Part shown: piece after piece, positions 47,101 through 64,000 of the stretch
Position numbering within the stretch: position 1 is the stretch's first letter
How the letters are laid out: the number at the start of each line of letters is the position of its first letter
Notes under the pieces: model-generated
Databases searched by the model: none
The model's input: only the letters and a program-made list of their open reading frames with translations
What the model was told of the DNA's origin: nothing
NCBI RefSeq assembly: GCF_018977255.1
Contig: NW_024704742.1
Span: forward strand, 37,202,001 to 37,266,000
Direction of reading: 5' to 3'
Length of the DNA: 64,000 bases
DNA from: Callorhinchus milii
Lineage: Eukaryota
Made by a program: the position numbers and the translations under genes

Positions 47101-50100
47101 ACATATTATTTATAAATCATTGTATTTACTTATTCCAACCTGCTCCAAGTCCCCCGCCCGTCCTGCCCCACCATCGGAGGTCAGGCCTTCATCCATCCCC
47201 CAATCCCTTCACCTCGCTCCCTCCCTTGCCTCCTTCAAGACCCATGTCAAGACCCTCCCTTGAATCGGACCTTTGGTCACCCTCCTACCCCCATCCTCCA
47301 TTCCCTCCACCCCTGTCGATACCATATAGTCTAAGCTGACACCAATGCAATGCTGGGGATTTGCTGCACTGTCAGAGGAGCCATCCTTCTGATGAGGTTA
47401 AACTGAGCCCTCAACTGCCTGTCTAGGTGGACATTAAAGATCCCATTTCATTATTTGAAAAGAGAAGGGAGTTTCTCCCAGAGTCCTGGCAAACAACACC
47501 TCAAATAAAGAATTGGTCATTCACTTCATGGGACATTACTGTGCTCAAATTGCATTCACCCGCAAAACATACAGTCACTACATTTTACAAGTGGGAAATG
47601 CTTTGAGATGTCCTCCCGATGTCAAAGACACTATACCAAAAGTAAGGTTATTATGATTGTATTTACATGCAATTGGGACTAATTCTACAGTTCGTATCAT
47701 TTTGTTTTCTTGAACAAATAAGTGAGAATCTATTAAACAAATTGTTCACTTAATACATCAGTAGTTTTAATTAGTTAAAATTGTTTTAAGTTATTCTGAT
47801 TGGAATTTTTGTTACTACAGGAAGCAGAATTGCACGTCACTCTGAACAAGTCAGAAAAAGGGAGTCTGGGATTCACAGTGACCAAAGGAGATGACAACAT
47901 TGGCTGCTACATCCATGACGTCATCCAGGATCCTGCAAAAAGTGACGGGAGACTACGACCTGGTGACAGGCTTATCATGGTATGTATAACCAGCCAAAAC
48001 TTGGTCCAAAATAATTAGCTTAATTTGTGTGTGTGTGTGTTTTGAGAAACAAAGAAGATAGAAGGGCTAGTTATTTTCTGCCCTTTTAGTTAAATGACAA
48101 AAAGCAATAGAAAGAATCTCATATCAAAAGAAGCAATCTTTTATTTAATTCCGACACAACCCTCTGTCTTTGTGTCCTCAGTTGTTTTGGTACTGAATTT
48201 AAGGCTATGCCTCACCACCCCGCCCTGTAAGAGAGCCCTCTATGAGAGTGAAGAGTTGTCCACAATCTAATCTGTCAGTTGGTTTCATTGTTGAATACCT
48301 CAATTAAATCACCTCTTCCAACCTCCTATAATAACAATTTGGTCACTCAGTCCATGACTGTTTGAGGGACACTCCTGTACACAATTGACTGCCATGTTTC
48401 ATCCACAAAATATACAGTCAGTACATTACATTATATTCTGTGAAGCACTTTGAGATGTCTCAAAGATGTGATAAAGCGCTATATCAAATGCAAGGATTAT
48501 TATTATATTATATAAGAATAGTTAAATCCTCCAAATCTTTTGTGTTATTGTTGCTGTTGTTGTTATTAAAAACAGATTGTTTACAATTAGGATACAATGT
48601 GATTTAAGCTTTGTAACTATCTTAGATTTTTAAAGGAAATTATGATATTATAGTACAGTGTATTTGAAAAGTGAAAAAGAATATGAAATATCCTGTTTCT
48701 AAATCTTTTGAACAGTAAGGTTCTTGCAGGTTTCAAACCAATCAAAATATAATTTATTACCTGGCACTTATATATTGTGCAAATTGTAGGAATGTCTGAA
48801 GGTTGCCAAATCTGTATTGATTGATGCTAGTGTGAACTGTTTTACCAAAGCCAATCTTTCAATTCCTGTTAAAATTCTATGAAATTCTGTACGAATAGCA
48901 TCTGTTGCCATTTCAACAAAGTTTTTGTGGGAGTAAAGTTTAAAGTTTGTGTGAAGGAATTGCTTCTCTGTACATTTTTAAGTTCAGGATTTTAACGCAC
49001 ACATCATTGCTTGAATAACAAAAAAGAGTCGGATTGCAAGCCTGGCTTCCTACGAGCCAAAGCTTCCAGACATAACAAGTCCGAGCACCACCAGGGATAG
49101 AGTAGGCATGCAAAGGGGCGTTTATGTTGAATGACTCAATTTTTTGAAGCTGTGGCTTACTTGATAAGAACTTCAGAGTTTCTTTTGGCACTCTGCAATA
49201 GGTGAATGGTGTTGACATCACCAGCATGAGTCACACAGAAGCAGTGGATTTTCTTCGATCAATCCCAGATGCAGTTACTCTCGTGATTGGAAGAGTCCTG
49301 GAAATACCAGAGTTTCCAATAGAGCCAGATATGCTTCCTGCGATTACAATGATCTCCCACGAACAGGAACTGGGTAATGTTATTTTACAAGAAATATTGT
49401 AAAATAGTCATTGTAATTATGAAAAAATAGTCATTGTAATAATGAAAAAAGTCATGAGAGATTTAAGTACCTATTTTGCGTTTTCTACTGAAATCTTGTC
49501 TAGTCTTAAAAATGCTTTTTCCTGTTTTCTTTTCAATAGTATAGAATATAACTAAGTATTGTGTGCAGTAAAGATATGTATTTAAGTTAGTGCAAGCTGT
49601 TCTGCGATATAAAATGTTACTGAAATCCTCATTACCGGATGGTTAATTTACAGATTTAACATTTTTGTGAACGGCATTGTATGTTTCAAATTCTTTGTCT
49701 AACAATTATTAATATTTTATTTAACGGGGAGGTTAAGGATCATTATAGTTTAACATAACAATGTCTTTCATTCTACTGGATTATTACTTAAAAATAAAAC
49801 CAAGTTGAGATGGTGCCTGTTACTTACTGTGTGTTTTAGATAGACAGGATTGCTGCATTTGTGTGCAGTATTTTGTGTACAGTTTAACTTCAGAAAGCAC
49901 ACATGACCTCTTATTTAAATTCTACAGTACAATTTACATTCAGATAAATGTTAAAATCATTGGACAACTTCTCAGTATAAAGAACCAGTGAATGTTCTGA
50001 GCGAGTCTTCTCTATTATTTAGGCTTATCTCTGGCTGGAGGAAGTGAAACCATTTACCAGGCAATTTACATTGGTGACATCACTCCAGGTTCAGCTGCTG

Positions 50101-53100
50101 ACACAGAGGGGAGTCTGCAGCCACTGGACCTTATCCATTATATTAATGAGGTCAGCACCCATGGGATGACAACAAATGAGGCAAAGGCAGCTCTTCTGAA
50201 TGTATATCCTACCATCACCTTGAAAGCCACAAGGTATTGCAAAATCTGTGTGTTGTTGTAATTTGTAATATGTTTCTGTTTTGCAAGTTAGGTTACATAT
50301 TAATTGGTTATTATGTGGAATCCTGTAGCTCAGTGGTTGGAGCGCTTGTCTCGCAAGCAAGAGGACCTGGGTTCGATTCCTGGGCGGGGCGAAATGTTGG
50401 ACAAGTTTCCTTACTCTACACATCTCTGTTACCCTTGCAGTAAGTAAGAACCCGGTTGTTAGTCATTTGGCGGATCGCTTTTCCGGAGGTAACAATTCCT
50501 TAAAAAAAATTGGTCACTCAATCCACGACTGTTTGTGGGACACCTTTTGTATGCAATTGGCTGCCATGTTTCACTTACAAAGCATACAGTCAATTTTCTT
50601 TACAGTATATTCTGTGAAGCTCTTTGAGACGTCTTGAAGATGTGATAAGGAACTATATCGAATGCAAGGATTATTATTAGCTCAACTAGAAAGAAATTTC
50701 AAAACTGCTTTTATAACAGCTGATGAGAATTCCTTTTAGCCTGCTTTCTCCATACCACATTTATGTTTAACTCTCTTGTCAGATACAATAATTCTACACT
50801 GGATTATAGGCCAATTGTTGGACTTTCTGATTCCACCTTGGTGGGAGTTGAACTATTATTCCATTCAGGATTGAACGTGGGGTCTTTGTGGTTTGAGTAA
50901 TTAAGTGTATGAGCACAGCAGCCTAAACATTGCCCACTGAGACATCAGGGGAACTATTATTTCTATTTTGTGTTTGTTGGGTATGGAAGGGTCAATCTAA
51001 AAGCTCCCTGGATAGTAGTAATTATTATATGAGGTTTATGCCTGTATTGAGTTTGCTAAAGGAATAAAAGCCAGTTTTCCTCAGAAACAATCTGTTTACA
51101 TTCTCACTAATTGAACTGAAAAAGCCAATAAGAAAACACACCCCTATTCTTGAGACTGACTGTTCATTAACAAGGCACCATTTATGCAAGCGCAGGAATT
51201 AGACTGCAACCCACGGTTTGTCTGACTCAGTTCTGAATCAATACCACTAATTAATCCTTGGAGCATTGCATTTAGCATGGCTGCATCATGATGAAAATAA
51301 GAGATCATTAAAATAATACATCAATAAATAAAGCTGTTTTCTGACAACTGTTAGTTACTTTGATTTCATAATAATAATAATCCTTGCATTTGATATAGCG
51401 CTTTTCACATCTTCTAGACGTCCCAAAGCGCTTCACAGAACACATTTTAAAGTGAATTGACTGTATATTTGTGGGCGAACGCGGCAGCCAATTGCGCACA
51501 GCAATGTCCCACAAACAGTCGTAGATTGAAAATGACCGATTTATTATTGTTTTTTGTTTTGGAGGGATTATTATTAGGCTCCTTGTGGAGTAAGGAAACT
51601 TGCCCAAGGTTTCGCCCTCTGCCTGGAATTGAACTCAGGTCTCTCGCTTGCAAAGCGAATGCTCTAACCACTGAGCTACAGGACTCCACACTTTTTACTA
51701 AGTTTACTAAATTCCCCCTCTGATTTTCTCCTCTCCTGCTTGGGTACAGTTCAACACATATCCAGCCACCTTCACATGTTGGGGGTTTGTTTTGTGAGCT
51801 AGGCAGTGACTATGAGGAGACGACTTGATAGCTAAGTCCAATTCTTCCACAACTGTTAGCATATATCTTTGCCTGACTTTTTCTCGCTGTCTCGCTTCTT
51901 TGACTTGATACCCAGTCCTGTAGAATTCACCCTTTAGAGATCAGCTTATCTAGGCTTGAGCCATTCTGCATTGTGTTGCTGGAACTCCATCCCAGAATCG
52001 CTTTCCTCCCTCTCTACTTTCCAAATTGCCTTCTAATGTGCTTTTGACCACCTTCCTCCTCAGATTCCCCTCATCTTCAGCTCAAGCTCCCAGTCAATTG
52101 TGTGAATTTCCTTGAGATATTTTTCTGATGTGAAAAGCTTTATACTTTATGAAACTAACATGTTATTGTTCCCACATGAACAATGCTACATTATATGTTT
52201 GCAAGTTGTTGTATGAGAGCACTTCAAAAGTAGCCAAGTATAGCTATTTGACAAACTGTTCTGGATAGACTTGGCTATCATTTCTATCCCTTCCCCAGCT
52301 CAAACACTCACTGTCTAGTTCAATAAGAAGCCTGGTTGCTTATATAAGGTGATGGAGGGTGGCTAATGCCTGTGGAACTCTACCCAAACCCAGGAGATTA
52401 CAAAGCTGCTTCGAGTTGAAGCACTTTTGCAGAAATAGCACAGCATGAGACTAAAATGTTTTATTGCTCAGAATAACCAGCATGTTGAATGGTTAAAAAC
52501 TTTGAGTTGTGTTTAACCCTTTTGCATCAATCACATTTGTTTGAGGTTCACCTTCTGGAAGGATATCATTAAAAACAGGATTGAGCTTTACAACACATGC
52601 ACTGTTTTCCACTCCATGCTTTGCATTTGGATTAATCTGCTACAGCCACCATATTTCTTCCATTGTGGCTCCCTGAAGGATCTTATTGCGTGACTGAGAT
52701 TGAAATGTGATCTGAAATGAAATTATGTTTTACAGCAATATATAAATGTAATTTCTTTGTATTGTATTGAATCACGTTCAGCCAAAAAATAGAATGTCAT
52801 ATTAAAAAAAGAAAATATTAATTAAAAAATCACACTCATTTAGTGTGACATTTTCAGTAATTTACTGGCTAACAGAGAATAAGTATTGTCTTTTGGAGAA
52901 TTCTTCTCTTTCCTCCAATCCTCCCTCCCTCCAACACTGATCATTTAAATAGAAACCTGATCCAGTATTGAATTAGCAGCTACTGGGGAGAAAATTTTGT
53001 GTTTAGTTTATCCACACCTGTGCAGATGCTTAATAGTTTTTCACCTGACAATGCCTGGTCTCACTTGGTTCAGTGTGAATTGATTATGAATAGGTGTTGA

Positions 53101-56100
53101 AGCAAATAACGGTGCAATCTAGATTATGTGCCTATTCATGCCCAGGAATAAAGAAATCATTTGTCAGATTTAAATAAGATAGCTTGAACCCTTTCAAAAA
53201 TTGAATGCAAATATCTTGTTCCTCATTTGGGCTAAAGTTCAATTCTGAATAAAGAAAATAGAGCAGTTAGTATAGTAGTTGGTTTCTTAATTCTAATATA
53301 TTTCATTGCTGATGAGATGAAAAATATATTTTCCTTTCATTGAGAGTTAAGTGTTTTATGACATGCTAAAGATACAATCAGAGATTCATACTGCAGCAAA
53401 ATCAAATGAAAAATAATGATATTGAATGCTCACCCAATATTACAACAATTAAATACATATGTGATCATATTATGTAAATGTCATCATTCACTATGAATAA
53501 ATCCCTTTTATAAAACCTACAATTAAAGCATTGTTTTTTTTTAAATTTGCAGAGATGGTGAGCCAGTTGTTCCCAAAACAGTGGATTCTCTCTACAAATA
53601 CGATAAAGACAAAGATTCAAAGCTAAATAAATCTGCTGAAGTTAATGGTAAGACTTTTCGGGAATTTTTTTCTGAATTTTTTTTTCCTGAACGTTTATTT
53701 AAATTTGTTATTACATCTGACCCGGCCACCAACTTCACTCAGAGATCACCGGCCTGCTTGATGTCCCTCCCTCCTATTTCGGCCTTTCTGCCCCCACTCC
53801 CTGGAGCTCTGTCCCAGAGTCCCTCCAATTCATCTCTTACCTCATTTAAGGTCCATCTCAAGATCTACCTCTTTAACCACATTCTCAGTCATCTTTATCC
53901 ACTCTACCCCACTTGGTTCCCACCACAGCTCAGGTGCTTTCCCAGCAGTATCAAGTACCTTGTGATGTCCTCCCAACATGAAAGCTGCTATATAAATGTA
54001 ACTGTATCGTATTGAATCACATTCAGCCAAAGAATAGAATGACATACAACAAATAAAGTTAATTTGGTGAAGCACGCATAATGTCAAAACATCCCAAAGC
54101 TCTTCACCATGTTTGTCATGTATAGTGACTGTTTCTTATAAGCAATCACGGCAGCCATTTTGCACAAAGCAAACAGGTGACTTTATCTGGAGGAGTGTGG
54201 CCAGGACACTGGGAGAAACTTCCATTTGTTTCAGATAGTATCATGGGATCACTGACATTTGCTTGCACAGGCAAGTGGGAGCTTAGTTTAATATCTTCTG
54301 AAGGATAGCACCTCTGACAATGCAGCACTCCCCTAGAACTCCACTAGAGTATCAGGTAAAACCATGATTTCAAAATTTCATACCACAATCTTCTGACCCA
54401 GAGACAAGAGTGCTACCAACTGAGTCAAGCAAACACCTAGTTATTAAACAGGAATAAATGGACATAAGCCTGGACTTCGGTAGAACACAGTAAATGCATC
54501 AAAAGATTCAGGTCATAGCATAAACCTATCAATGAGTTTATCAATGTGATTCAAACAGCAATGTGTTTCGTGCTCAACAGATTCAGCAGTTTTATGACAT
54601 TGCCGCTGTGTTCCCTTAGCTTTATTTTCGAGGGTTTGTATCACTTTGGTGATTCAGCACAGATTTCTCTGACTAAATCCTGACCTGAATTGAATGCTTT
54701 TGCAGTTTCTGATTTAGACTGGGATGAAATGTAGATTTCAGTGCTTATTACAGGTAGATGAATCACTTACTGGTGTCATATTCCACACCTAATTCCAAAG
54801 GAAACTAAACACTCCTCAGCCTTCTCAGTCAGGTTAGAATTTGCTAATGTCCACCTATGTGCTTTTCAAGCTTTAGTGGAACAAAGCACTTCGTTCCTAC
54901 CAGACTGTACATGTTTCTCAAATAGCTTATAGGTGCCATAAGAACATTGCTTCACTGATTTGAACAGGTCTATTTTGGGAATGGGACTTGGGGCTAATTC
55001 TACAGTAGTGCATTATAATCACTGATACATTTGTCATCATTAGACTGTCAAAAAAGTATCCCATCTGTACCTATAATATATTCTATAAGTAGCCATATTT
55101 CAATGCCAGCTGTTTGCAAATGGCTGCGATTATTAGGGTTTCTACAAAAATTCCTAGCAGTTCCAAAATGCTATAATTTCAAATTTTGGTACTAAATATG
55201 ACTGTCTAAAGCAGGGAACATTAGACAATCAAGAAAGTGGAACCACTGCATTAGGGATGTTTGACACTTTGGATATGAGGTTTAATCTACGTCTAACCTT
55301 ATTTGTGAGATATAGATACCTATAATGGGAAAAGAAAATGGAAAGTATATCAACTTCCAGCGTTCAAATAATTGCACCTAATAGCGCAGTGTATCAACCA
55401 AAAAAGTGTCAAATAAGTAGCTAAAACTTACTCAAAAATAGTCGATCAACTTGACCTGAAATATAGCTGTTTTATGGTAAATCATCATTCATAATTCCTA
55501 CAACTTGGGTTGGGCAAAGTGAAAAGGACATTGCCTGAACCCTGGAATTCTCTTGTTTCTATTCTATGTAAAACATCCAGAATATCTAAAGACTTTTTCT
55601 TGAATTAAAATAAAATTTGACAAAGCTTCATTCTATACACGTTTCAAATTTGGCAAAAAGATGTTTGTGTTTGTGAAAAGACCACTTTCCATTTTCAAAA
55701 TACTCATCATCACCATCAAGCACTGCCAAGTCAGGTACACCACATCCTACACTGTACCTTCATCTACTGCTCCACAGACAGTCTATCTTACCACCTCCAC
55801 TTCAGAAAGCGACACTTTAGTGTAAGAGTGTGATATGTTTTTCATACCAGCCATCCATTTTGGCCTGCCTCTGAATTGCATGTGAAGAAGGACCCACGTT
55901 AATGCTACGTTGCGAGAGATTTAAAATAAGTCCAATTGTTTCTTTATGATCAGAAAAAAAACCTGAACAATGGCTATCAGAGTTAAATTTTAAAAAATGT
56001 ACTTGTGTCCTCCCTTTCACTATAGAACCATAAGTAGTTCCAGCACAAAAAGAGGCCATTTGTCCTATTGTGTCTTTGAAATAGCTACCTATATAGCCCC

Positions 56101-59100
56101 ATACACCAGCCATTTCCCCATAGCCTTTTTTATATTTCTCCTTTTCACATATTTATCCAGCCCCCCTCTTAAAAATTATATGAATTCTGCTTCAACCAAT
56201 GTTTATCTGAGCCCTGAATTCTAATCATCCAGAGAGTGTGTGTTCACAGGACAGCCCAGCATTTCATGATTTGGCATAGTTCAAACCGTTGTTATAAAAT
56301 GGTGTATCATAAAATGGTGTATTATACAGTACTACAAATGTTGCTCATGTTAGTTGGTTTCTCATGATACCATACTATAGTCTTTTTGGAGCAATTTTAC
56401 CATTTGGAATTACATAACCAGTATTGAATGAGCCTTTGTCATCGGTTGGCAGAAAATACTGTTGATTCAACCTAAAATACCTCACATTCAGACTCTCTGA
56501 AGTTAGGTGTCACCTGGCTCAGTTTGTAGCACGTTTGCCTTAGAATCGGAAGGTCATTGGTTCAATGTCCACTTTAGTATTTAAAACTTATAATCAAGGC
56601 TGACAATCTAGTGCAGTGCTGGAAAGTGCCTTCATTTGGATGAGATGGTAAACCGATGTCCCATCCTGCCTATCCAGATGGAATTTAAAGCTCCCTTGGC
56701 ACTATTCAAATTAAAAAGAGAAGGGAGTTTCTCCTGCTGTCCTGGCCAACAAATCCCCAGACAAAACAAATGTTCATTCACTTAGAACACAAAAGCATAT
56801 ATTGTGTTCTTATATGTTCATTCACTTGATGGGTGTTTGTGGAATGTTGCTCTGTGCAAATTGACTGCTGTGTTCACCTATAAATACATCCATCACTATG
56901 CTTTCTAGAAACATCTGTGAAACACTTTTTGTTTGTATGTGATAAGGTGCCATATCAAATGCATGGATTATTATTGTTCATAAAGCATAAATTTATCTGT
57001 GCTCATTGAATAAGATTTCCTTGTGGCTATGAATTCCTGAGTTCATTGCAGTTTAGGTTTTAAATGCTACTTCTTTTTGTAGGACATATCCACGGAGACT
57101 TGAGCTGTGACTCTAATCCAGTACCTGGTGTGTACATATCAGAGGTACAAATCTATATTTACCATTGTATAAATCAAAGAGAAAAACTGGAGGTTATAGT
57201 ATCTGACAAATTATGAATATGTGGTCAAAATTACAGCTAACCTTTTTTGTCTCAATTTTCAAAAGCAAATTGTATTCTGCATTAACTAATCAAACAGATT
57301 CAATCCTGAAGGTCTCTTTGACTTTTTTTTGGCAGAACTCAATTTAGATATATTGCATTTGTGATTCTAAATGTTTGTGTGTTCTGGCTACCCTTTTATA
57401 TCACAAAAGTTGTGAATCTCTTGTGTGGAAGAATACTCACAAGGCAAAGTAAAGGGAGAAGAAAGGAGTGTGATAATCATATGAAGATTTACCAAGGCTT
57501 GTTCATTGACTTGTTACTCAGTTCCCAAATAATATGAGGAAACAGTCAACAGAAGGCAGTATTCTTGAGCTTAGAAGGTATGCCAGCAACAACAATGTGT
57601 ATTTGCAGCCTTTCATATAACAGACTATTTCAAAGCACTGAATAAATGTTGTGCAAGCTAAACTAAACAGGAAATGAGATTAAAGAATTTTGATCACCTT
57701 TAGCTCAAGCTGTACAGTGCTCTGATCAGGCTGGAGTGTACATTTCTCATGACTATGCAGTGGAGCCCAGTGAAAGACTCTCAAGGTTAGAGGAGTAAAC
57801 TACACGGAACAACTGAATACAATCTGGTTTCTCGGCTTGGCAAAAAAGGCACATGAAATGCATAATAGGATAGAGCAAGTAACCCTGTATCAATACTTTC
57901 AAATATGTTAAAGTAGCAGAACAAGGGGTTGAGGTTCAGGGTGTGAAAGGAAATCTTAGGATACAAAGCAGGATCTCTTCACCCTGAGGGCAGGACATTG
58001 CATTTATTTTTAAAAGAAAGCTTAATGCTGTAATGGGAAAACAGTAGGATAGGTATTCTGAAAGGATGAGATCAAATTAATTGAAGATTTTTCTGCCTTC
58101 AAACCTGTGCTGTGATCTTCAAAAAAAAATGTGCTTTGCATGTTAGCAATACTTGTTACACAGATACTCATCATATTTTGAGGTTTAATTGTGGTCTGTT
58201 TGTGCATCTTTTCACAGTAGCTTTAGTCCTTGTTGTAAATAAATAGTAATAAAGCCTTCACACATGAGATTATTTGTTTTTGCAAATAAACGAGTTTTGT
58301 TTCCACAATATATATTGGGTTAGTATCAAAGTTCAGTGGAAATTTAATACCTTTGTTCTTCTTTGTAGAGTAATGTAACAGAAATTGATCTGCACAAACC
58401 TGCCTCAGGAGGACTAGGATTCTCCCTAGTAGGTGGTGAGAATGGTATTTATGTAAAGAGTGTACATCCGTCTGGGCCAGCTGCCGAGGATGGAAGGCTA
58501 CAAGTTGGTGACAAATTGCTCCAGGTAACAATCAACATCTGCTTTTGATATCAGAAAATCAAATGGGCAAAATTCCAGTCGGCAATCTGCGTAATATCTG
58601 GCAATGTCAGACACTAAAGAGATTTTCCTGTTTTAATCGAGCATCGCCAACCCATACCTGCAGCCCATAAATAAGCTCACTTATAAAGGAATGGATGGTT
58701 TGGGAATGTGAAACAGCCAAACAAGTTTGTCCTGACAGTGTTAGACCACCCATAACTCTGAGGAGTTTTTTTTTATTCAGCAAAAAGCTGCAACAGCATT
58801 ATCTGGTAGTCAAAAGCCACGATCTGAAGTGAACTCAGCTTCACAGATATTGACATTGAGAATGGTATCAGGTGGGGGGAGATCCACCTGAAATGCATTT
58901 GGGTAAACCATATTCAATACTTAGGAAATTTCTAACTTTAAATCATAAATGACACTCCGGTATTATTAAAAAGCCAATCATGCAATCCGTTGTTTAATAA
59001 CATTAAAATCACTCTCTTCAGATCGAGCAGTTCAATAGAGCACTGAAGGAGGAGCCTATTGGAAGGGGTCTAGTGTGCCATATTATACTATGCAAATAGC

Positions 59101-62100
59101 ACTGCTTCTTAAGGTACCACTGCCAAGTATTGTCAGGAGCGGGGCAGCTCATATATGTAATTCCAGTTTATACTGTACGTTTGGCAGGGAATCTCAACAA
59201 TTATTCATCAAGCAGACAGTGTAAGTAAATGCAGCATTTGTGACTTGGTACCCAAACATTTCTTATTAACTGGAAGCTTTGTATTTGATATAGTGCCTAT
59301 ATGTTGAAACATTTCAAATTATTTTCCCCGGTTGTAAATGCAACCAAATTAGATGGTAAATTTGAAAGTATAACTGGGGTTGCCAGTTTTCATTTTTATT
59401 ATTTTTAAATTTCAGCATATTTTATATTAATTTTTTTTTGGGGGGGGATTTTATCAATTTTTTTGTGTTCTTTGACTACAAAATGATCACCTTCTGGTTA
59501 CTATGGTTGTACGGTTTGTAAGATTGCTATGGACAACACTTTGGTGCAATACAAAGCAGCGCTTCTAAAATCACATAGGTTTTTCAGTTTTTTCCAAATC
59601 AAGGAAAATAAGACAATTTTTATCTTTGAAACCAGTAACCGGCAAGTAGTTTTATAATGATTAAGCTTTAATACAAGCTATCACTGACCAGTTCAGGAAA
59701 ACACCAACTGATAATGAATAAGACAAGATACATTTGCAGCTGACATCTGACAGATTACCAGGAACAGAGAACCACCCCTTAATAAGCCGAGCTGGTGATA
59801 TGTCATTAGCAAAAACTTGTGCAACATCAGGAAGAAAAGCTTATAATGGATATGTGCTGTTCAAGATGGAATATATAGGAACTCTCTCATAAAATAATTG
59901 ATTAAAAAAAAATTATTATTAAAAGATCATGCAATAACAGAAGAGTCCAGAAATTTAGAGGAAATATAAATATCATACTTAATTTATTTTAAAATATATT
60001 TTGTCTACCCTTTCCTCAGAGGATCAGCTTTAAGATTCTTGTTCTAAACTTCCAAATGCCGTCATGTCTTGCCCCCATCCTACTTCTGTGATATCTGTGG
60101 TCCTGCTCCTTCTACTCTGTTAACTTATCTCATGACTAGTGGGACAGTTTTCAGTCACTTTGCCCCTGCTCTCTGAAACTCACTCCACCTTAAATATCTC
60201 CACTGTGCACCCTCCCTCTCTGCTTTCAAAAGTCGTCTAAAAATCCACATTTTTGACTACCTCCTATTTCCCATTCTACTTGATCTCCCACTTCGTCACT
60301 GGGGAGCACTATGAGACTTTTCTATATGTAAGGCACATATATAATAATAATAATAATCCTTGCATTTGATATAGCACTTTTCACGTCGGGAGGACGTCCC
60401 AAAGCGCTTCACAGAACACACTGTAAAGTGAATTGACTGTATATTTGTGGGCGAATGCGGCAGCCAATTGCACACATCAATATCCCACAAACAGTCGTAA
60501 ATTGAAAATGACCAATTTATTATTGTTTTTGGTTTGGGAGGGATTATTATTAGGCGTGTGGAGTAAGGAAACTTGCCCAAGGTTTCGCCCTGCCTGGAAT
60601 TGAACTCAGGTCTCTCACTTGCAAAGCGAGTGCTCTAACCACTGAGCTACAGGACTCCACATCCTGTATATATATTTATTTATATTTATTTATAAATATT
60701 TATATATATATATAAATATATTTATAAATAAATGTATATATTTATATATTTATGAATATATAAAGCAAGTTGTTATTTTAAAAAAATCCACCAAACACAA
60801 TATTTTTTAAAAAATCACAAAAAATGTGTTCCCTTTTCATGAAGGAGAAATCCTTCATTTAATGAAATACTGAGTTGCTAAATAACAAAGAAAAGGTACT
60901 TAACCCAAAGTTCTTGAGAATTCCAAACCACCATTCAATTTTGCCCCCAAATAAATATCGTTTCAAAAACAGAATCATGTCTCTTATTATAATTTCTTGA
61001 ATCTTCTTTGTTTTCGAGTCTCGCCTACAAATAGTCACAAATGTACAGTAAATCCTGTGAAACATTTGTTGATGTGAAAAGATACTTTATCATATGCAAG
61101 GATTATTACTATTTCTCTTTCTAACCCTATATAAACCAGCAAGTGGGGGAGGGGGCACTAAAGATGTGGTGATAACTTGCCTACACCTTCCATTTTCTGT
61201 ATTCTTTAACTACAGGTAAATGGAGAATCTATAGTTGGAGCTTCCCACACTAAAGCAGTGACAACAATCCGCAAAGCCAAGGGACTGGTCAACTTAGTTG
61301 TCTCCAGGACAAAGTCCCCAGACAAAGTGAGGCCTTTGATCAGAAATGTTGATACAATGTGTTCTTTCAACAACTCACAAAGTGGAGGTAAGAGTAAAAC
61401 TCAAAACAATGTAATAATTTAATGCAATTTTATTTTAAAATTGAAAAAGGGGGAGTGAGTCATTGCCAGTTGCCACCCTTTACTTTCATCTCTGGGGCCT
61501 GAATGAAACTTGTTCCAGAATGATACAATTAAAGGTTCCTGGTGGGTAAGAAGCTGTCCATATTTCAAAATTATATATTTCAAAACATTGAATTTCCCTG
61601 GTACGTTTTAAAATGCAGAAATGAATTGGCCTGAATTTAGATAAAATAATAACTGGTGTAGATAATAATAATAATAATAATCCTTGCATTTGATATAGCG
61701 CTTTTCACGTCTTTTAGATGTCTCAAAGTGCTTCACAGAATATACTGTAAAGTGAATTGACTATATTTGTAGAAGTCAAACAGGGTGCGTTCCTCCGAGT
61801 AGAGAGTGCACATTCAGTTCCAGACTTAGGAAAATTTCCATGTGAAGGTGGCATGCATATGTGAAACTCTCAGACTGGTTTGGATACTCTTAAGCGTGGT
61901 GAAGACTTTCTGCATGGCATGTGTCGAACACCTGCTGATCATCGAAAATGGCGAAAATCAGTTTAGCTGTTGCAATTTTATTTTGAGGCACCAAATGAAC
62001 TGAAAATAGTTTCTAGCAAACTGCCGTGACTAGAATGTGCAGGTTCTTATGATTGGATCTGCTTATAATCTATATCAATTTAACATGAAGACTTCTTATA

Positions 62101-62289
62101 GGACTACTGAAGTAATCCAACCGTATCTCTGCCAAACTTGAATGTATTTTTCCCCTGCCTTATTTGATTCAGACATCACTGCCAAAGAAGCTGAAGCTCT
62201 GCAGTCCTTGTTGGATGTTATTCATCAAGAAGCCAATAAACTTTCTTGTTTCAGCCCAATAAACTCTCCAACAAAAATTCCACAGCCAG
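5096..62289 (+). CDS. PTPN13: PTPN13 (tyrosine-protein phosphatase non-receptor type 13), partial multi-exon gene: 33 internal coding exons covering FERM and six PDZ domains; 5' and 3' ends outside the window
   Basis: Exons listed below have AG/GT boundaries and matching phases, giving one open frame. Peptides such as [34 protein letters not shown] and [16 protein letters not shown] are recognisably PTPN13. Confidence 0.97.
7225..7605 (-). mobile_element. L2-clade LINE 3' fragment
   Basis: Reverse strand has the LWNS-like ORF2 end, C-rich 3' UTR, agcgct stem-loop tail and (ttg)n end. Confidence 0.8.
7745..7950 (+). mobile_element. CR1-clade LINE 3' fragment
   Basis: Matches the reverse complement of the CR1 copy at 24577-24790, including the gggctgaatggcct.....tgctcct tail. 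Confidence 0.75.
8113..8350 (-). mobile_element. tRNA-derived SINE, 3' part (subfamily of 50315 copy)
   Basis: (aat)n tail, aagcgcttcacag and gcgcacagca.tgtcccacaaacagtc motifs. Confidence 0.8.
8611..8710 (+). CDS. PTPN13: PTPN13 exon ([33 protein letters not shown])
   Basis: Strong pyrimidine tract + tag, gtgaat donor; phase 1-2 fits both neighbours. Confidence 0.85.
8960..9175 (+). mobile_element. L2-clade LINE 3' fragment
   Basis: Close inverted match to 7225-7430; stem-loop tail and (gtt)n end. Confidence 0.8.
9452..9659 (+). CDS. PTPN13: PTPN13 exon, coiled-coil region ([27 protein letters not shown]...[19 protein letters not shown]); alternative start 9455
   Basis: cagcag tandem acceptor, gtgaag donor; MLKRQEEEL and RDPLR motifs. 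Confidence 0.9.
9698..10027 (+). mobile_element. Full-length tRNA-Ala-derived SINE (about 330 bp)
   Basis: Pol III A box tagctcagtgg, B box gagttcaattcc, anticodon arm ctcgc-tttgcaa-gtgag, LINE-like stem-loop tail, (att)n end; three near-identical copies elsewhere. Confidence 0.93.
10770..11100 (-). mobile_element. L2-clade LINE 3' fragments
   Basis: Reverse-strand LWNSIP...[10 protein letters not shown] peptide typical of the L2 ORF2 end. Confidence 0.7.
11236..11310 (+). CDS. PTPN13: PTPN13 exon ([25 protein letters not shown])
   Basis: cag/gtaaag boundaries, phase 0-0. Confidence 0.95.
11615..11975 (+). repeat. Unidentified interspersed repeat family X
   Basis: Matches 836-999 (rc), 42970-43120 and 61780-61950. 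Confidence 0.7.
12140..12311 (+). CDS. PTPN13: PTPN13 exon, FERM F1 start ([29 protein letters not shown]...FALAYLK)
   Basis: cag/gtacat, phase 0-1. Confidence 0.95.
12629..12954 (+). mobile_element. Full-length tRNA-Ala-derived SINE
   Basis: Near-identical to 9698-10027. Confidence 0.93.
13913..14063 (+). CDS. PTPN13: PTPN13 exon, FERM ([24 protein letters not shown]...[17 protein letters not shown])
   Basis: tag/gtaagt, phase 1-2; not in the ORF track but translated by hand. Confidence 0.95.
15290..15735 (+). mobile_element. Older, longer tRNA-headed SINE (DeuSINE/SacSINE-like), diverged
   Basis: Degenerate A/B boxes, central ccatcctt.agat.agatgttaaacc region, same tail; related copies at 40125, 47325, 54085 and 56507. 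Confidence 0.7.
15835..15973 (+). CDS. PTPN13: PTPN13 exon, FERM F2 ([46 protein letters not shown])
   Basis: aag acceptor, gtacac donor, phase 2-0. Confidence 0.95.
17069..17221 (+). CDS. PTPN13: PTPN13 exon, FERM F2 ([19 protein letters not shown]...ETQLEFMK)
   Basis: tag/gtattg, phase 0-0. Confidence 0.95.
18630..18812 (+). CDS. PTPN13: PTPN13 exon, FERM F3 ([15 protein letters not shown]...[14 protein letters not shown])
   Basis: cag/gtaagt, phase 0-0. Confidence 0.95.
20229..20391 (+). CDS. PTPN13: PTPN13 exon, FERM F3 end ([54 protein letters not shown])
   Basis: cag/gtatgt, phase 0-1. Confidence 0.95.
20580..21135 (+). mobile_element. L2-clade LINE 3' fragment
   Basis: Degenerate [12 protein letters not shown]...LQIIQNSA...LHW coding remnant plus tail. 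Confidence 0.85.
21511..21952 (+). CDS. PTPN13: PTPN13 exon, post-FERM linker ([11 protein letters not shown]...MGRANSS...SKSYYDLSQ...RRTKS)
   Basis: tag/gtatat, phase 1-2; MGRA and SKSY.DLSQ motifs. Confidence 0.92.
22620..22945 (-). repeat. Unidentified interspersed repeat family X
   Basis: Reverse complement matches 1030-1310 and 42800-43100. Confidence 0.75.
24577..25535 (-). mobile_element. CR1-clade LINE, 5'-truncated (RT C-terminal half + 3' UTR)
   Basis: Reverse strand encodes [31 protein letters not shown]...[13 protein letters not shown]...LWNSLP; ends in gaatggcctactcctgctcct and (ttcttatg)n tail. Confidence 0.92.
26265..26365 (+). CDS. PTPN13: PTPN13 exon ([33 protein letters not shown]); alternative in-frame start 26256
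   Basis: cag (or upstream aag) acceptor, gtcagt donor, phase 2-1; RSP..R...SDSSS.ED..QAYV motif. Confidence 0.9.
27789..27845 (+). CDS. PTPN13: PTPN13 57-nt symmetric exon ([19 protein letters not shown])
   Basis: cag/gtaggc, phase 1-1; MHSSG motif shared with human. Confidence 0.88.
28346..28428. repeat. Near-perfect inverted repeat (about 34-bp arms, 13-nt loop)
   Basis: gtgcttgccagcactttttcttgcttcttttaag / cttaaaagaagcaagaaaaaagtgctggcagagcac. Confidence 0.95.
30065..30154 (+). CDS. PTPN13: PTPN13 exon, PDZ1 start ([30 protein letters not shown])
   Basis: cag/gtatgc, phase 1-1. Confidence 0.93.
30520..31560 (+). mobile_element. L2-clade LINE, 5'-truncated (RT YADD to 3' UTR)
   Basis: ORF 30614-31144 MYADDTQLY...[15 protein letters not shown]...RLDYAN...IQNSAA with premature stop; 3' tail. 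Confidence 0.92.
31715..31825 (+). CDS. PTPN13: PTPN13 exon, PDZ1 ([37 protein letters not shown])
   Basis: tag/gtactg, phase 1-1. Confidence 0.93.
32788..32913 (+). CDS. PTPN13: PTPN13 exon, PDZ1 end ([42 protein letters not shown])
   Basis: cag/gtactg, phase 1-1. Confidence 0.95.
34550..34895 (-). repeat. Unidentified interspersed repeat family X
   Basis: Reverse complement matches 1060-1372 and 43105-43170. Confidence 0.7.
36011..36468 (+). CDS. PTPN13: PTPN13 exon, PDZ1-2 linker (...[16 protein letters not shown]...[15 protein letters not shown]...RPKK)
   Basis: cag/gtaatg, phase 1-0; strongly conserved linker motifs. Confidence 0.93.
36725..36860 (+). mobile_element. Penelope-like element terminal-repeat fragment
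   Basis: cctggcctgctgagtgttcccagc...ttcagatttccagcatctgcagtatt resembles the common shark Penelope-type terminus (recalled); preceded by a ctgacga...gaaac motif. Confidence 0.55.
38092..38220 (+). CDS. PTPN13: PTPN13 exon, PDZ2 start (DSAADKTK...[22 protein letters not shown]); alternative end 38235 adds VLFGK
   Basis: tag acceptor; donors gtactg (38221) and gttttc (38236), phase 0-0. Confidence 0.95.
38450..39165 (-). mobile_element. L2-clade LINE fragment with internal deletion
   Basis: Reverse-strand [10 protein letters not shown]...DIKAWM and LWNTLP...[11 protein letters not shown]; tail at 38450-38515. Confidence 0.85.
39513..39606 (+). CDS. PTPN13: PTPN13 exon, PDZ2 ([31 protein letters not shown])
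   Basis: cag/gtaagc, phase 0-1. Confidence 0.96.
39904..39989 (+). CDS. PTPN13: PTPN13 exon, PDZ2 ([29 protein letters not shown])
   Basis: cag/gtgaga, phase 1-0. Confidence 0.96.
40125..40610 (+). mobile_element. Older DeuSINE-like SINE interrupted by a short L2-type tail (about 40240-40350)
   Basis: Collinear with 15290-15735 and 56507-56975 apart from the insert. Confidence 0.65.
40743..40926 (+). CDS. PTPN13: PTPN13 exon, PDZ2 end/linker ([10 protein letters not shown]...PVTPQCT...KDYSFVTD)
   Basis: cag/gtgagg, phase 0-1. Confidence 0.95.
41887..42101 (+). CDS. PTPN13: PTPN13 exon, PDZ3 ([19 protein letters not shown]...KKLFPGQPA...[18 protein letters not shown])
   Basis: tag/gtaagg, phase 1-0. 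Confidence 0.96.
42800..43180 (+). repeat. Unidentified interspersed repeat family X
   Basis: Collinear with 1030-1310 and 11630-11770. Confidence 0.75.
45221..45316 (+). CDS. PTPN13: PTPN13 exon, PDZ3 end ([32 protein letters not shown])
   Basis: cag/gtgagt, phase 0-0. Confidence 0.95.
45817..46217 (+). CDS. PTPN13: PTPN13 exon, PDZ3-4 linker (SLISSHSEG...[10 protein letters not shown]...KLELTS)
   Basis: cag/gttggt, phase 0-2; SRRDSYSDS motif. Confidence 0.9.
46822..47032 (+). CDS. PTPN13: PTPN13 exon, linker ([10 protein letters not shown]...[12 protein letters not shown])
   Basis: tag/gtaact; phase 2-0 bridges both neighbours. Confidence 0.85.
47821..47979 (+). CDS. PTPN13: PTPN13 exon, PDZ4 ([53 protein letters not shown])
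   Basis: cag/gtatgt, phase 0-0. Confidence 0.96.
49202..49373 (+). CDS. PTPN13: PTPN13 exon, PDZ4 end / PDZ5 start ([19 protein letters not shown]...LVIGRVLE...HEQEL)
   Basis: tag/gtaatg, phase 0-1. Confidence 0.95.
50023..50233 (+). CDS. PTPN13: PTPN13 exon, PDZ5 ([50 protein letters not shown]...TLKAT)
   Basis: tag/gtattg, phase 1-2. Confidence 0.95.
50315..50679 (+). mobile_element. tRNA-Ala-derived SINE, distinct subfamily with a longer middle
   Basis: A box tagctcagtgg, B box gggttcgattcc, anticodon loop ctcgcaa, same tail. Confidence 0.88.
51368..51689 (-). mobile_element. Full-length tRNA-Ala-derived SINE
   Basis: Reverse complement near-identical to 9698-10027. Confidence 0.93.
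53553..53647 (+). CDS. PTPN13: PTPN13 exon ([31 protein letters not shown])
   Basis: cag/gtaaga, phase 2-1; PVVP motif after PDZ5. Confidence 0.88.
54085..54430 (-). mobile_element. Older DeuSINE-like SINE
   Basis: Reverse complement resembles 15290-15735 and 56507-56975. Confidence 0.6.
56507..56975 (+). mobile_element. Older DeuSINE-like SINE
   Basis: tggctcagtttgtagc A box, ggttcaatgtcc B-box remnant, shared body and tail. Confidence 0.7.
57083..57144 (+). CDS. PTPN13: PTPN13 exon ([21 protein letters not shown])
   Basis: tag/gtacaa; phase 1-0 is exactly what is needed between 53647 and 58369. Weak sequence conservation. Confidence 0.75.
58369..58524 (+). CDS. PTPN13: PTPN13 exon, N-half of a sixth PDZ domain ([52 protein letters not shown])
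   Basis: tag/gtaaca, phase 0-0, canonical GLGF PDZ signature. Confidence 0.93.
60341..60660 (-). mobile_element. Full-length tRNA-Ala-derived SINE, adjoining the tail of an older L2 fragment (about 60010-60340)
   Basis: Reverse complement near-identical to 12629-12954. Confidence 0.93.
61216..61387 (+). CDS. PTPN13: PTPN13 exon, C-half of the sixth PDZ ([31 protein letters not shown]) + linker
   Basis: cag/gtaaga, phase 0-1; VNG...H..AV..IR PDZ signature. Confidence 0.92.
61780..61950 (+). repeat. Unidentified interspersed repeat family X, distal part
   Basis: Matches 11820-11975 (agagtgcacattc, ccatgtg.aggtggcat, ggtttg.ata.tc.taagc.tggtga). Confidence 0.6.
62173..62289 (+). CDS. PTPN13: PTPN13 exon ([39 protein letters not shown])
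   Basis: cag/gtaacc, phase 1-1; EAE..QSLLDV motif of PTPN13, confirming the sixth PDZ lies inside this gene. Confidence 0.92.
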
Positions 62290-62689
62290 GTAACCTCTTC
62301 TAAGGGTTCGGGGGAGGGGAAGGGAAATTTATTTGATGATCTTTCCACCGTCAGCCTGCTTTGCTTGAATGGAAACTGATGGTGAATTTTAGCTGCATGA
62401 AAACATTACTTTATTTTCTGTTACAAAACCAAACTGATACATCTATCTCCGATACTGCTTTTTGTAATTTGGAGCTCAAATAGAAACGGCTTTGCAAACT
62501 CCTGAGCTGTCAGTTGTTTGTATGCAGAATCCACAGCAGCCACACAGAAGCAACTATTTTACAGCAAACTCCTGTTAGAGCATCAAGCTGTTTCTTAAAA
62601 ATGTCCAAGACTCTAGACTCAATCACTCTTCTTTGTGTCCCTTTGCAACTGCCTATTTGCCTCTGTATAAAGAAATACTTCCTGATGTC

Positions 62690-63620
62690 GCTGTAAACGT
62701 GACCTTCACAGCCATGATCCCTGAACCTTTGCCCTCTTGTCTTTTGGTCTTGGAATATCTGAAATTATTTTACTTATTCTAGCCTTAAATGTCTTGCATA
62801 CCTTTACAAGACCTCTCTTTTTAAGACTGAAGAGCCCTATCTTATTGAATCATTCCTCACTGTTCATCTCTTTAACGATGGGGATCAATTTTGTTGCTTC
62901 CTCTTAAAAGCCTAGCTAGGTCTTTTCTATCATGGAAACTGGAACTATATACTCCAGGTGCAGCCTAACCAGAGTACTGTACAGCTTAAACATGAATTGC
63001 AGGGATTTGATTTGGCAGAGAAGATCAGCGTTATGTTTGCTTTTCATTGAAAATGGTGATCACAGAGTCGATGTATAATTCCTGGGTCTCTTTCAGGTTA
63101 CCCCTAGAAAAAAATATCCATGAAATACACAAGTCTTCTATCTTTGCTTCTAATATACAGTACTTTGCTTTTGTCCATATTTAGCATCATCTGTGACATA
63201 TCAGCTTAGCTTGATATGTCACAAATTACATATCTACCTCCCCTGAGTCTACAGTTTTCTAGCTTAGTTATCTGTGCATTTAACAACTTTGCACTGAATC
63301 TGCAAATTAAGTTCAATTATGTACATCAATAAGAAGTGTTCCAGCATGGTTCCCTAAGGCACTGCACTCAATAATTCTCCTCCTTTTAACCAAACTCTGT
63401 AATGATTACCCTCTGCTTCCTTCCCTTCAGCTAATTACTAATCTCCATGTCATTTCTTTGAAACACACAGATTTTAGTTAAAAGCATCTTTTGTGTGGTA
63501 CATGTAAAAGCCTTTTGAACATTAGGCTGCACTACTTCATTATGACTTCTTACTATTCAATTTGAATGTCACCTCCTCAAAATTACCTAACGTTGGTTGA
63601 TTAAGATCTACTCCTTCTGA
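62690..63620 (-). mobile_element. Old, highly decayed CR1-like LINE fragment
   Basis: Loose similarity to the 24577-25535 CR1 copy (ctggaactatatactccaggtg..gcctaacca, catcatctg, ttagttatctgtgcattt). Confidence 0.55.
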
Positions 63621-64000
63621 AGCAGAGTTGGCTCTCATTTATTTGGCTATTTTCATACTGGTTCATTACAATTATTGAGGTCCCGTTATTGAAACAATTG
63701 TTCTTTCACCCTCATTGCATGAAGCAACACCATTTGTCCTTTTTCTATTTGATGAAAACTCCACATTGCTCTCTCAAAAAGGTGAGTAATATCTTGTCCA
63801 TGTACCTCATAGCTTTCCAAATTAATACTGGCATCTATTATGCGCCACGTGTAAACCATGTGTGAACACATATATAGAATGGATCAAAAGTACACTTAAA
63901 TTTGTAATTAACAACCAATGAAAGGGACTTGATTGTTAATGACAGAATAAATCCTTTCCTACAAATAGGACAAGATACTGCCCCCCACCCCTCCCACAGG

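Follow-up and report, generated by a model that had tools for sequence, protein, structure and literature searches.

How many PDZ domains did the phosphatase PTPN13 possess ancestrally, and how many of them have been kept in the various vertebrate groups? This question is raised by a stretch of 64,000 nucleotides (nt) of Callorhinchus milii (contig NW_024704742.1 of assembly GCF_018977255.1, positions 37,202,001 to 37,266,000 of the forward strand; hereafter the window), in which an original prediction, made from the letters alone, placed two exons encoding an additional PDZ domain, here called PDZ6, in the PTPN13 gene. Mammalian PTPN13, also named PTP-BAS, PTPL1, FAP-1 or PTP-BL, is composed of KIND, FERM, five PDZ and protein tyrosine phosphatase (PTP) domains, and to our knowledge PTPN13 has always been described as a five-PDZ scaffold. 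Early FAP-1 papers reportedly gave the human protein six GLGF repeats, of which the extra one is N-terminal and not PDZ6.

Regarding the published record, passages of van Eekelen et al. 2012 (PMC3335823) assign five PDZ domains to full-length Ptpn20 of zebrafish and to PTP-BL, passages of Hendriks et al. 2023 (PMC9900141) assign five to both PTPN13 and full-length PTPN20 of human, and the abstract of a further paper (PMC6615252) again gives five for PTPN13. A description of a six-PDZ PTPN13 was not found in the literature searched. Papers matching 'PDZ6' or six PDZ domains together with tyrosine phosphatase or FERM were judged by title and abstract to concern other proteins.

The objective of this study is to establish what the two exons encode, to which gene they belong, how old the domain is and what has become of it. 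Our analysis makes it highly likely that the layout of the gene is KIND-FERM-PDZ1-6-PTP, in which the two exons, A and B, form PDZ6, the PDZ domain nearest to the phosphatase domain.

Results

Exons A and B form a complete PDZ domain

The exons around PDZ6 were located by tblastn and Pfam comparison, by splice sites and reading frame and by contigs from public runs. Parts of the stretch are contained in 14 such runs, four of which, from three studies, were aligned to positions 49000-64000; the runs concerned are named X3, X4 and X6 below. The exons are as follows, in window coordinates.

49201..49372, + strand: exon in which PDZ4 ends and PDZ5 begins (teleost and shark PTPN13 align here by tblastn; contig pieces in X3 record 1 and X4 record 5)
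50022..50231, + strand: exon with the PDZ5 core (tblastn; spliced to the exon at 53551 in contigs X3 record 1 and X6 record 10)
53551..53647, + strand: linker exon 1 between PDZ5 and PDZ6, 97 nt with a GT donor (covered by contig pieces)
57083..57144, + strand: linker exon 2, 62 nt with AG/GT borders, in frame (compatible with the 61 letters of X3 record 1 that are not listed)
58369..58524, + strand: PDZ6 exon A, with the first strands, the GLGF carboxylate-binding loop and the first helix (Pfam; contigs of runs X3, X4 and X6)
61216..61387, + strand: PDZ6 exon B, with a strand, helix alphaB with its histidine (SHTKAV), the last strand and some 28 residues of tail (Pfam; contigs)
62173..62289, + strand: linker exon 3 with AG/GT borders, in frame (matches the ..VIQSLLDVV.. 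block found in PTPN13 of amphibians, reptiles and mammals)

Exon A has 156 nt, phase 0 at both ends and the borders ttctttgtag/AG and CAG/gtaaca, and exon B has 172 nt and the borders aactacag/GT and GAG/gtaaga. When joined, they give a single open frame of 109 codons in which GGLGFS, GIYVKSV and SHTKAV are found. For the exon starting at 53551, just three of the ends tried keep the frame, and among these a GT follows 53647 alone. Against the Pfam PDZ profile (PF00595, 81 positions), exon A aligns at positions 1-51 with 43.5 bits (expect value, E, 4.1e-11; cutoff 23.2) and exon B at positions 52-80 with 18.6 bits (E 0.0024), so that the two exons make up a complete PDZ domain split by one intron; the coverage of the profile over both exons and the GLGF-type loop GGLGFS place it in this family.

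The exons are joined to each other and to their neighbours in intron-free contigs. The longest path is that of X3 record 1 (4847 nt), which passes through 49201-49372, 50022-50231, 53551-53646, 61 unlisted letters, 58367-58521 and 61213-61387, and which thus puts the PDZ6 exons in one transcript with PDZ4 and PDZ5. X4 record 7 joins 58380-58517 to 61209-61332, and the junction from 58524 to 61216 is therefore present in two studies; X4 record 9 joins 61306-61385 to 62171-62289, and X6 record 10 joins 50083-50231 to 53551-53648. PDZ6 is spliced into transcripts.

Most of what had been predicted about the structure of the locus is thereby borne out: two well-spliced, phase-matched exons encoding a complete PDZ, PDZ5 and two linker exons ahead of them and a return to the QSLLDV exon, all in frame, and the junctions 58524-61216 and 61387-62173, both of which are spanned by intron-free contigs. 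The predicted junction 57144-58369 is upheld in part, insofar as X3 record 1 passes from 53646 to 58367 with 61 fitting letters, but the exon 57083-57144 itself does not appear among the listed pieces.

The introns around PDZ5 and PDZ6 also hold copies of a short interspersed nuclear element (SINE) with a tRNA-Ala-like head, at 50320-50650 (+), 51363-51690 (-), 60339-60661 (-) and 61665-61766, which draw very high contig depth and false joins in the runs. An AT-rich simple repeat of TATATTTA-like units (60660-60760) adjoins the SINE copy in the PDZ6 intron.

The gene of the window is the PTPN13 orthologue

PTPN13 proteins align by tblastn collinearly with the exons from about 9.4 kilobases (kb) to 61.4 kb of the window, that is, from just upstream of FERM, via the PTN13_u3 linker and PDZ1-5, through PDZ6. 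The summed scores are 1460-1660 bits for PTPN13 of whale shark, Xenopus, teleost, turtle and bat, as against 855 for skate FRMPD2 and 846 for the amphioxus protein, and the whale-shark protein is the nearest by identity (63.5%) among the proteins compared. In the same assembly, N-terminal exons lie upstream of the window, and phosphatase exons follow on the same contig and strand, 7.5-9.2 kb beyond the end of the window; the latter, linked to the gene by position, share 61-71% identity with whale-shark PTPN13. On a different contig (contig C7 of G000, 6571420-6621043) there is a second, weaker locus, which matches PTPN13 at 46-52% identity in FERM, PDZ and phosphatase parts and is probably the unsplit FRMPD2/PTPN20 paralogue. 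By these comparisons the window gene is assigned, as had been predicted, to PTPN13, to which it is closer than to FRMPD2/PTPN20.

Compared with mammalian PTPN13, the gene shows the same family and domain order, its exons being collinear with PTPN13 of bat and monkey (and also of turtle), and PDZ1-5 fall into the same five classes in both. The difference lies in PDZ6, which is full in the window gene, whereas the 50 placental and two monotreme entries compared are without its first half and retain a degenerate second half. PTPN13 models of teleosts, whale shark, frog and newt have the same six-PDZ layout as the window gene. The PDZ6 of these public models, which for the other species are automatic predictions, is 51-64% identical to that of the window by BLASTP, and that of whale shark 70% identical over 88 columns of the tree alignment described below. 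Full-length FRMPD2/PTPN20 shares the architecture, and its last PDZ is of the PDZ6 class in skate, coelacanth, paddlefish and lungfish; it forms, however, a separate paralogue clade, and its PDZ6-class domain is 46-57% identical to that of the window.

PDZ6 is an ancient class of domain

Cluster representatives were searched with a fragment from PDZ2 to PDZ6 and then compared locally. In most of the representatives that bear a phosphatase, the best match of the window PDZ6 is the PDZ lying a few hundred residues ahead of the PTP domain. Ten of these have names: Xenopus laevis and whale shark under the name PTPN13, amphioxus, a hemichordate, a crinoid and a nemertean under the name PTPN13-like, and, as paralogues, skate FRMPD2, coelacanth PTPN20 and proteins of paddlefish and lungfish. 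The paralogues of skate, coelacanth and paddlefish (P0136, P0143 and P0135) have six PDZ hits each, one of those in coelacanth being partial.

For a domain tree, 102 PDZ hits were cut from 18 proteins, two partial ones were dropped and the window PDZ6 was added, which gave 101 rows and 94 columns. Six classes result, and the 14 PDZ6-type rows are united in a single split, with an ultrafast bootstrap of 98 and a Shimodaira-Hasegawa-like approximate likelihood ratio test value of 95 (97 in a quick tree); its members are the PDZ6 of the window, whale shark, two teleosts, Xenopus and newt, together with the last PDZ of amphioxus, hemichordate, crinoid, nemertean and the four paralogues. No amniote PTPN13 domain of the 101-row tree falls in this split, and the window PDZ6 pairs with that of whale shark (98/93). 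As the clade holds domains of invertebrates and of paralogues, six PDZ domains are reconstructed as ancestral and older than jawed vertebrates, and, on this tree, five PDZ domains are the derived state of amniote PTPN13.

The conservation of PDZ6 is high. Between three vertebrate and three invertebrate proteins, mean identity is 55% for PDZ6, surpassed by PDZ2 alone (60%) and well above PDZ5 (35%), and both G-x-LGFS and x-H-x-x-AV are kept in 150 of 150 PDZ6 copies. The loop after the GG-E motif varies in length, being four residues shorter in vertebrate PTPN13 PDZ6, and two shorter in the paralogues, than in invertebrates.

Sampled amniotes keep only a remnant of PDZ6

The distribution of PDZ6 was surveyed by several searches. 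With the peptide of exon B, seven proteins were found from 19 candidates, six of them named and all of these from teleosts or sturgeon; three of the six are PTPN13 or PTPN13-like, and one carries six Pfam PDZ stretches. With a teleost query from PDZ5 to PTP there were 2306 matches, and those listed, 120 in all, span 96-100% of the region, 117 of them being named to species and all of these teleost. A Xenopus query of linker plus PTP gave 120 listed entries, namely 37 amphibian, 10 turtle, 21 squamate, two monotreme and 50 placental; this tetrapod sample is unbiased for PDZ6 because the query region excluded it. The window peptides of exons A and B were then sought in the interval ahead of the PTP domain of each entry, with the following result for the entries listed.

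Teleosts: both peptides in 120/120 (120 listed of 2306); exon B only in 0; neither in 0
Whale shark: both in 1/1; exon B only in 0; neither in 0
Amphibians: both in 29/37; exon B only in 8/37; neither in 0
Turtles: both in 0/10; exon B only in 6/10; neither in 4/10
Squamates: both in 0/21; exon B only in 0; neither in 21/21
Monotremes: both in 0/2; exon B only in 0; neither in 2/2, with weak exon B matches (E 0.036 and 0.094)
Placentals: both in 0/50; exon B only in 0; neither in 50/50

The number of PDZ domains points the same way. Six Pfam PDZ stretches are counted in whale shark, Xenopus, newt, amphioxus, hemichordate, crinoid and skate FRMPD2, and five in turtle, lizard, echidna, bat and monkey; a PDZ profile of our own gives identical counts and, in turtle, an additional partial match (31 bits over profile positions 38-91). 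In the alignment from PDZ5 to PTP, the amniote gap is exactly exon A. What follows the gap is a remnant of exon B, with VNG...SH.NAV...KGL in turtle and in a caecilian-like form (E 7.6e-07 for turtle in peptide comparison), and which is increasingly degraded in squamates, echidna, bats and monkey; the ..IQSLLDVV.. block after exon B is common to all tetrapods aligned. A sturgeon model (P0002) that is missing PDZ4, PDZ5 and the N-terminal half of PDZ6 looks faulty and was not used.

As read from these models, the sampled amniotes are without exon A and keep exon B as a decaying half-domain remnant, and the loss of PDZ6 predates mammals, since turtles and squamates also are without exon A (0/31). 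It had been predicted that mammals lack a sixth PDZ, which agrees with its absence in 52 of 52 mammalian entries, and that the domain might already be annotated in fishes, as it indeed is in public models of teleosts, a shark and amphibians. The proposed count across orthologues gave six in shark, Xenopus and newt and five in turtle, lizard, echidna, bat and monkey. The further proposal of an ancestral jawed-vertebrate module lost by mammals is right as to ancestry and has to be amended as to dates and extent: the module is older than jawed vertebrates, and its loss older than mammals and partial, affecting exon A only.

Exon A behaves as a cassette in amphibian models

The length of exon A and its phase 0 at both ends mean that skipping it keeps the reading frame. 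Exactly its 52 residues are missing, with the flanks joined directly, from isoforms X5 and X6 of Xenopus laevis (P0278 and P0282; two of eight annotated, one cluster), and the same 52 residues are missing from isoform X7 of Ranitomeya (P0304) and present in its isoform X1. The amphibian entries with exon B only (8/37), including the sole caecilian one, are of this skipped kind. These forms suggest that skipping of the first half of PDZ6 in amphibians is regulated splicing.

Predicted fold and putative ligand of PDZ6

The AlphaFold model of whale-shark PDZ6 has a mean predicted local distance difference test score of 90.3, and its strands and helices follow one another in the canonical order. 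Its match with the listed solved PDZ domains gives template modelling (TM) scores of 0.84-0.91 with root-mean-square deviations of 1.1-3.1 Å at identities of at most 44%; no solved structure of a PDZ6 orthologue is among the structure matches listed. In this orthologue the model thus predicts the six-stranded sandwich with two helices of a PDZ domain. A profile built from nine PDZ6 sequences aligns over its full length with PDZ1-3 of PSD-95 and with other PDZ domains, and its top single-domain scores are to generic PDZs. The likeness to PDZ1-3 of PSD-95/DLG extends to TM scores of 0.86-0.90 (entries listed), the GLGF loop and the alphaB1 histidine, though the host proteins are unrelated.

A histidine at alphaB1 marks class I PDZ domains, which bind C-termini of the form S/T-x-hydrophobic. 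That the histidine of SHTKAV holds this position, as originally proposed, is upheld by its alignment on the alphaB1 histidine of PSD-95 PDZ1, PDZ2 and PDZ3 and by the 150 copies noted above, and PDZ6 is thus a putative PDZ of class I type. Its GLGF loop would hold the C-terminal carboxylate of a partner, and its histidine would read Ser or Thr at position -2. From the end of PDZ6 to the start of PTP there are 195-211 residues in shark and 29 amphibian entries, and a bound substrate or regulator would thereby be brought within about 200 residues of the catalytic domain. Skipping the 52-codon exon A would turn this site off and leave the reading frame intact, and the amniote form would then be the skipped state made permanent.

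Discussion

Several other explanations of exons A and B have been considered. One of them, that the exons are unused look-alikes which happen to be open, is next to untenable, as the two are spliced together and to their neighbours in intron-free contigs of two studies and the same exons are found in gene models across fishes and amphibians. Hardly better is the case for a late gain, in which a different PTPN13 PDZ was duplicated in fishes and amphibians and the amniote line never had PDZ6. The absence from amniotes would be explained in this way, and nothing further; the clade with invertebrate and paralogue domains, apart from PDZ1-5, speaks against it, and it is contradicted by the recognisable exon B remnant that amniotes retain at the same place (E 7.6e-07 and 31 bits in turtle). 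It might also be asked whether the window holds the FRMPD2/PTPN20 paralogue, which has a last PDZ of the same class in skate, coelacanth, paddlefish and lungfish. We consider this very improbable, though a little less so than a late gain, in view of the 1460-1660 bits to PTPN13 orthologues against 855 to skate FRMPD2, of the pairing of the window PDZ6 with that of whale-shark PTPN13 (98/93) while the paralogue domains group in a clade apart (99 in the quick tree), and of the separate weaker locus elsewhere in the same genome, which fits the paralogue.

As for what PDZ6 does in PTPN13, two proposals may be set side by side, neither of which we rate highly. One is that PDZ6 is an ancient switch, operated by splicing, that controls substrate access to the phosphatase or its activity. 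Inclusion or skipping of exon A would turn the PDZ6 site on or off, and amniotes would have fixed the 'off' form. This is a speculative proposal, which we think improbable as it stands. Still more doubtful is the other proposal, namely that intact PDZ6 acts mainly inside the protein and tunes phosphatase activity, so that exon skipping would alter catalytic regulation. The PDZ of PTPN4 is a precedent, as it tunes the activity of its own phosphatase, and PDZ6 is the PDZ nearest to PTP (195-211 residues), is strongly conserved down to invertebrates and can be removed through in-frame skipping. However, the PTPN13 C-termini (-NISG, -PLK, -ENQ and similar) are without a class I motif and give no hint of self-binding, for which reason the idea that PDZ6 binds its own C-terminus was dropped; a link to the single PDZ of PTPN3 or PTPN4 was likewise set aside, neither being among the best 60 solved-structure matches listed; and the fully conserved, canonical peptide groove fits outside ligands at least equally well.

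For the six-PDZ layout and its ancestry, which we take to be the best explanation, a number of points weigh on the other side. Concerning the locus itself, the Pfam scores were taken exon by exon; the AlphaFold model is that of whale-shark PDZ6, 70% identical, and not that of the window; and ligand binding by PDZ6 is putative. The runs are guessed to be RNA, and transcript status rests on the contigs being intron-free. At window position 58436, the contig of run X3 (depth 92.6) has G>A, which changes a glycine to Asp; this glycine, the second one after the GLGF strand, is invariant in the PDZ6 alignment, and the contigs of runs X4 and X6 read G, so the change may be an allele, an error or editing. 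The skipped form in C. milii, with a junction from 57144 to 61216, is neither seen nor excluded, because joins of the SINE repeats filled the table of contig joints and made it unreadable, and the amphibian isoforms are predicted gene models. Concerning distribution, the teleost list is biased toward holders of PDZ6 because the query region contained it; exon A is found in 0 of the 83 amniote entries listed, genomes not having been searched for an unannotated copy; and the sampling left out birds, crocodilians, marsupials, lampreys, hagfish and gars, as well as PTPN13 of coelacanth and lungfish.

PDZ6 is not new in public gene models and is ordinary in kind, and the practical weight of finding it in C. 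milii is moderate for the reason that those models already hold it. What goes beyond the print found in the literature searched is the set of six ancestral PDZ domains, the cassette exon and the half-domain remnant of amniotes. It means that the PTPN13 models of zebrafish and Xenopus carry a putative binding module that is missing from mammals, that part of the 'unstructured' linker between PDZ5 and PTP in mammals is a domain remnant, and that PTPN13 provides a dated example of domain loss via the loss of a cassette exon. If the proposal of a splicing-operated switch were true, the human PDZ5-PTP linker would be a fossil half-domain, and PTPN13 of fish and frogs would have partners unavailable to the mammalian protein.

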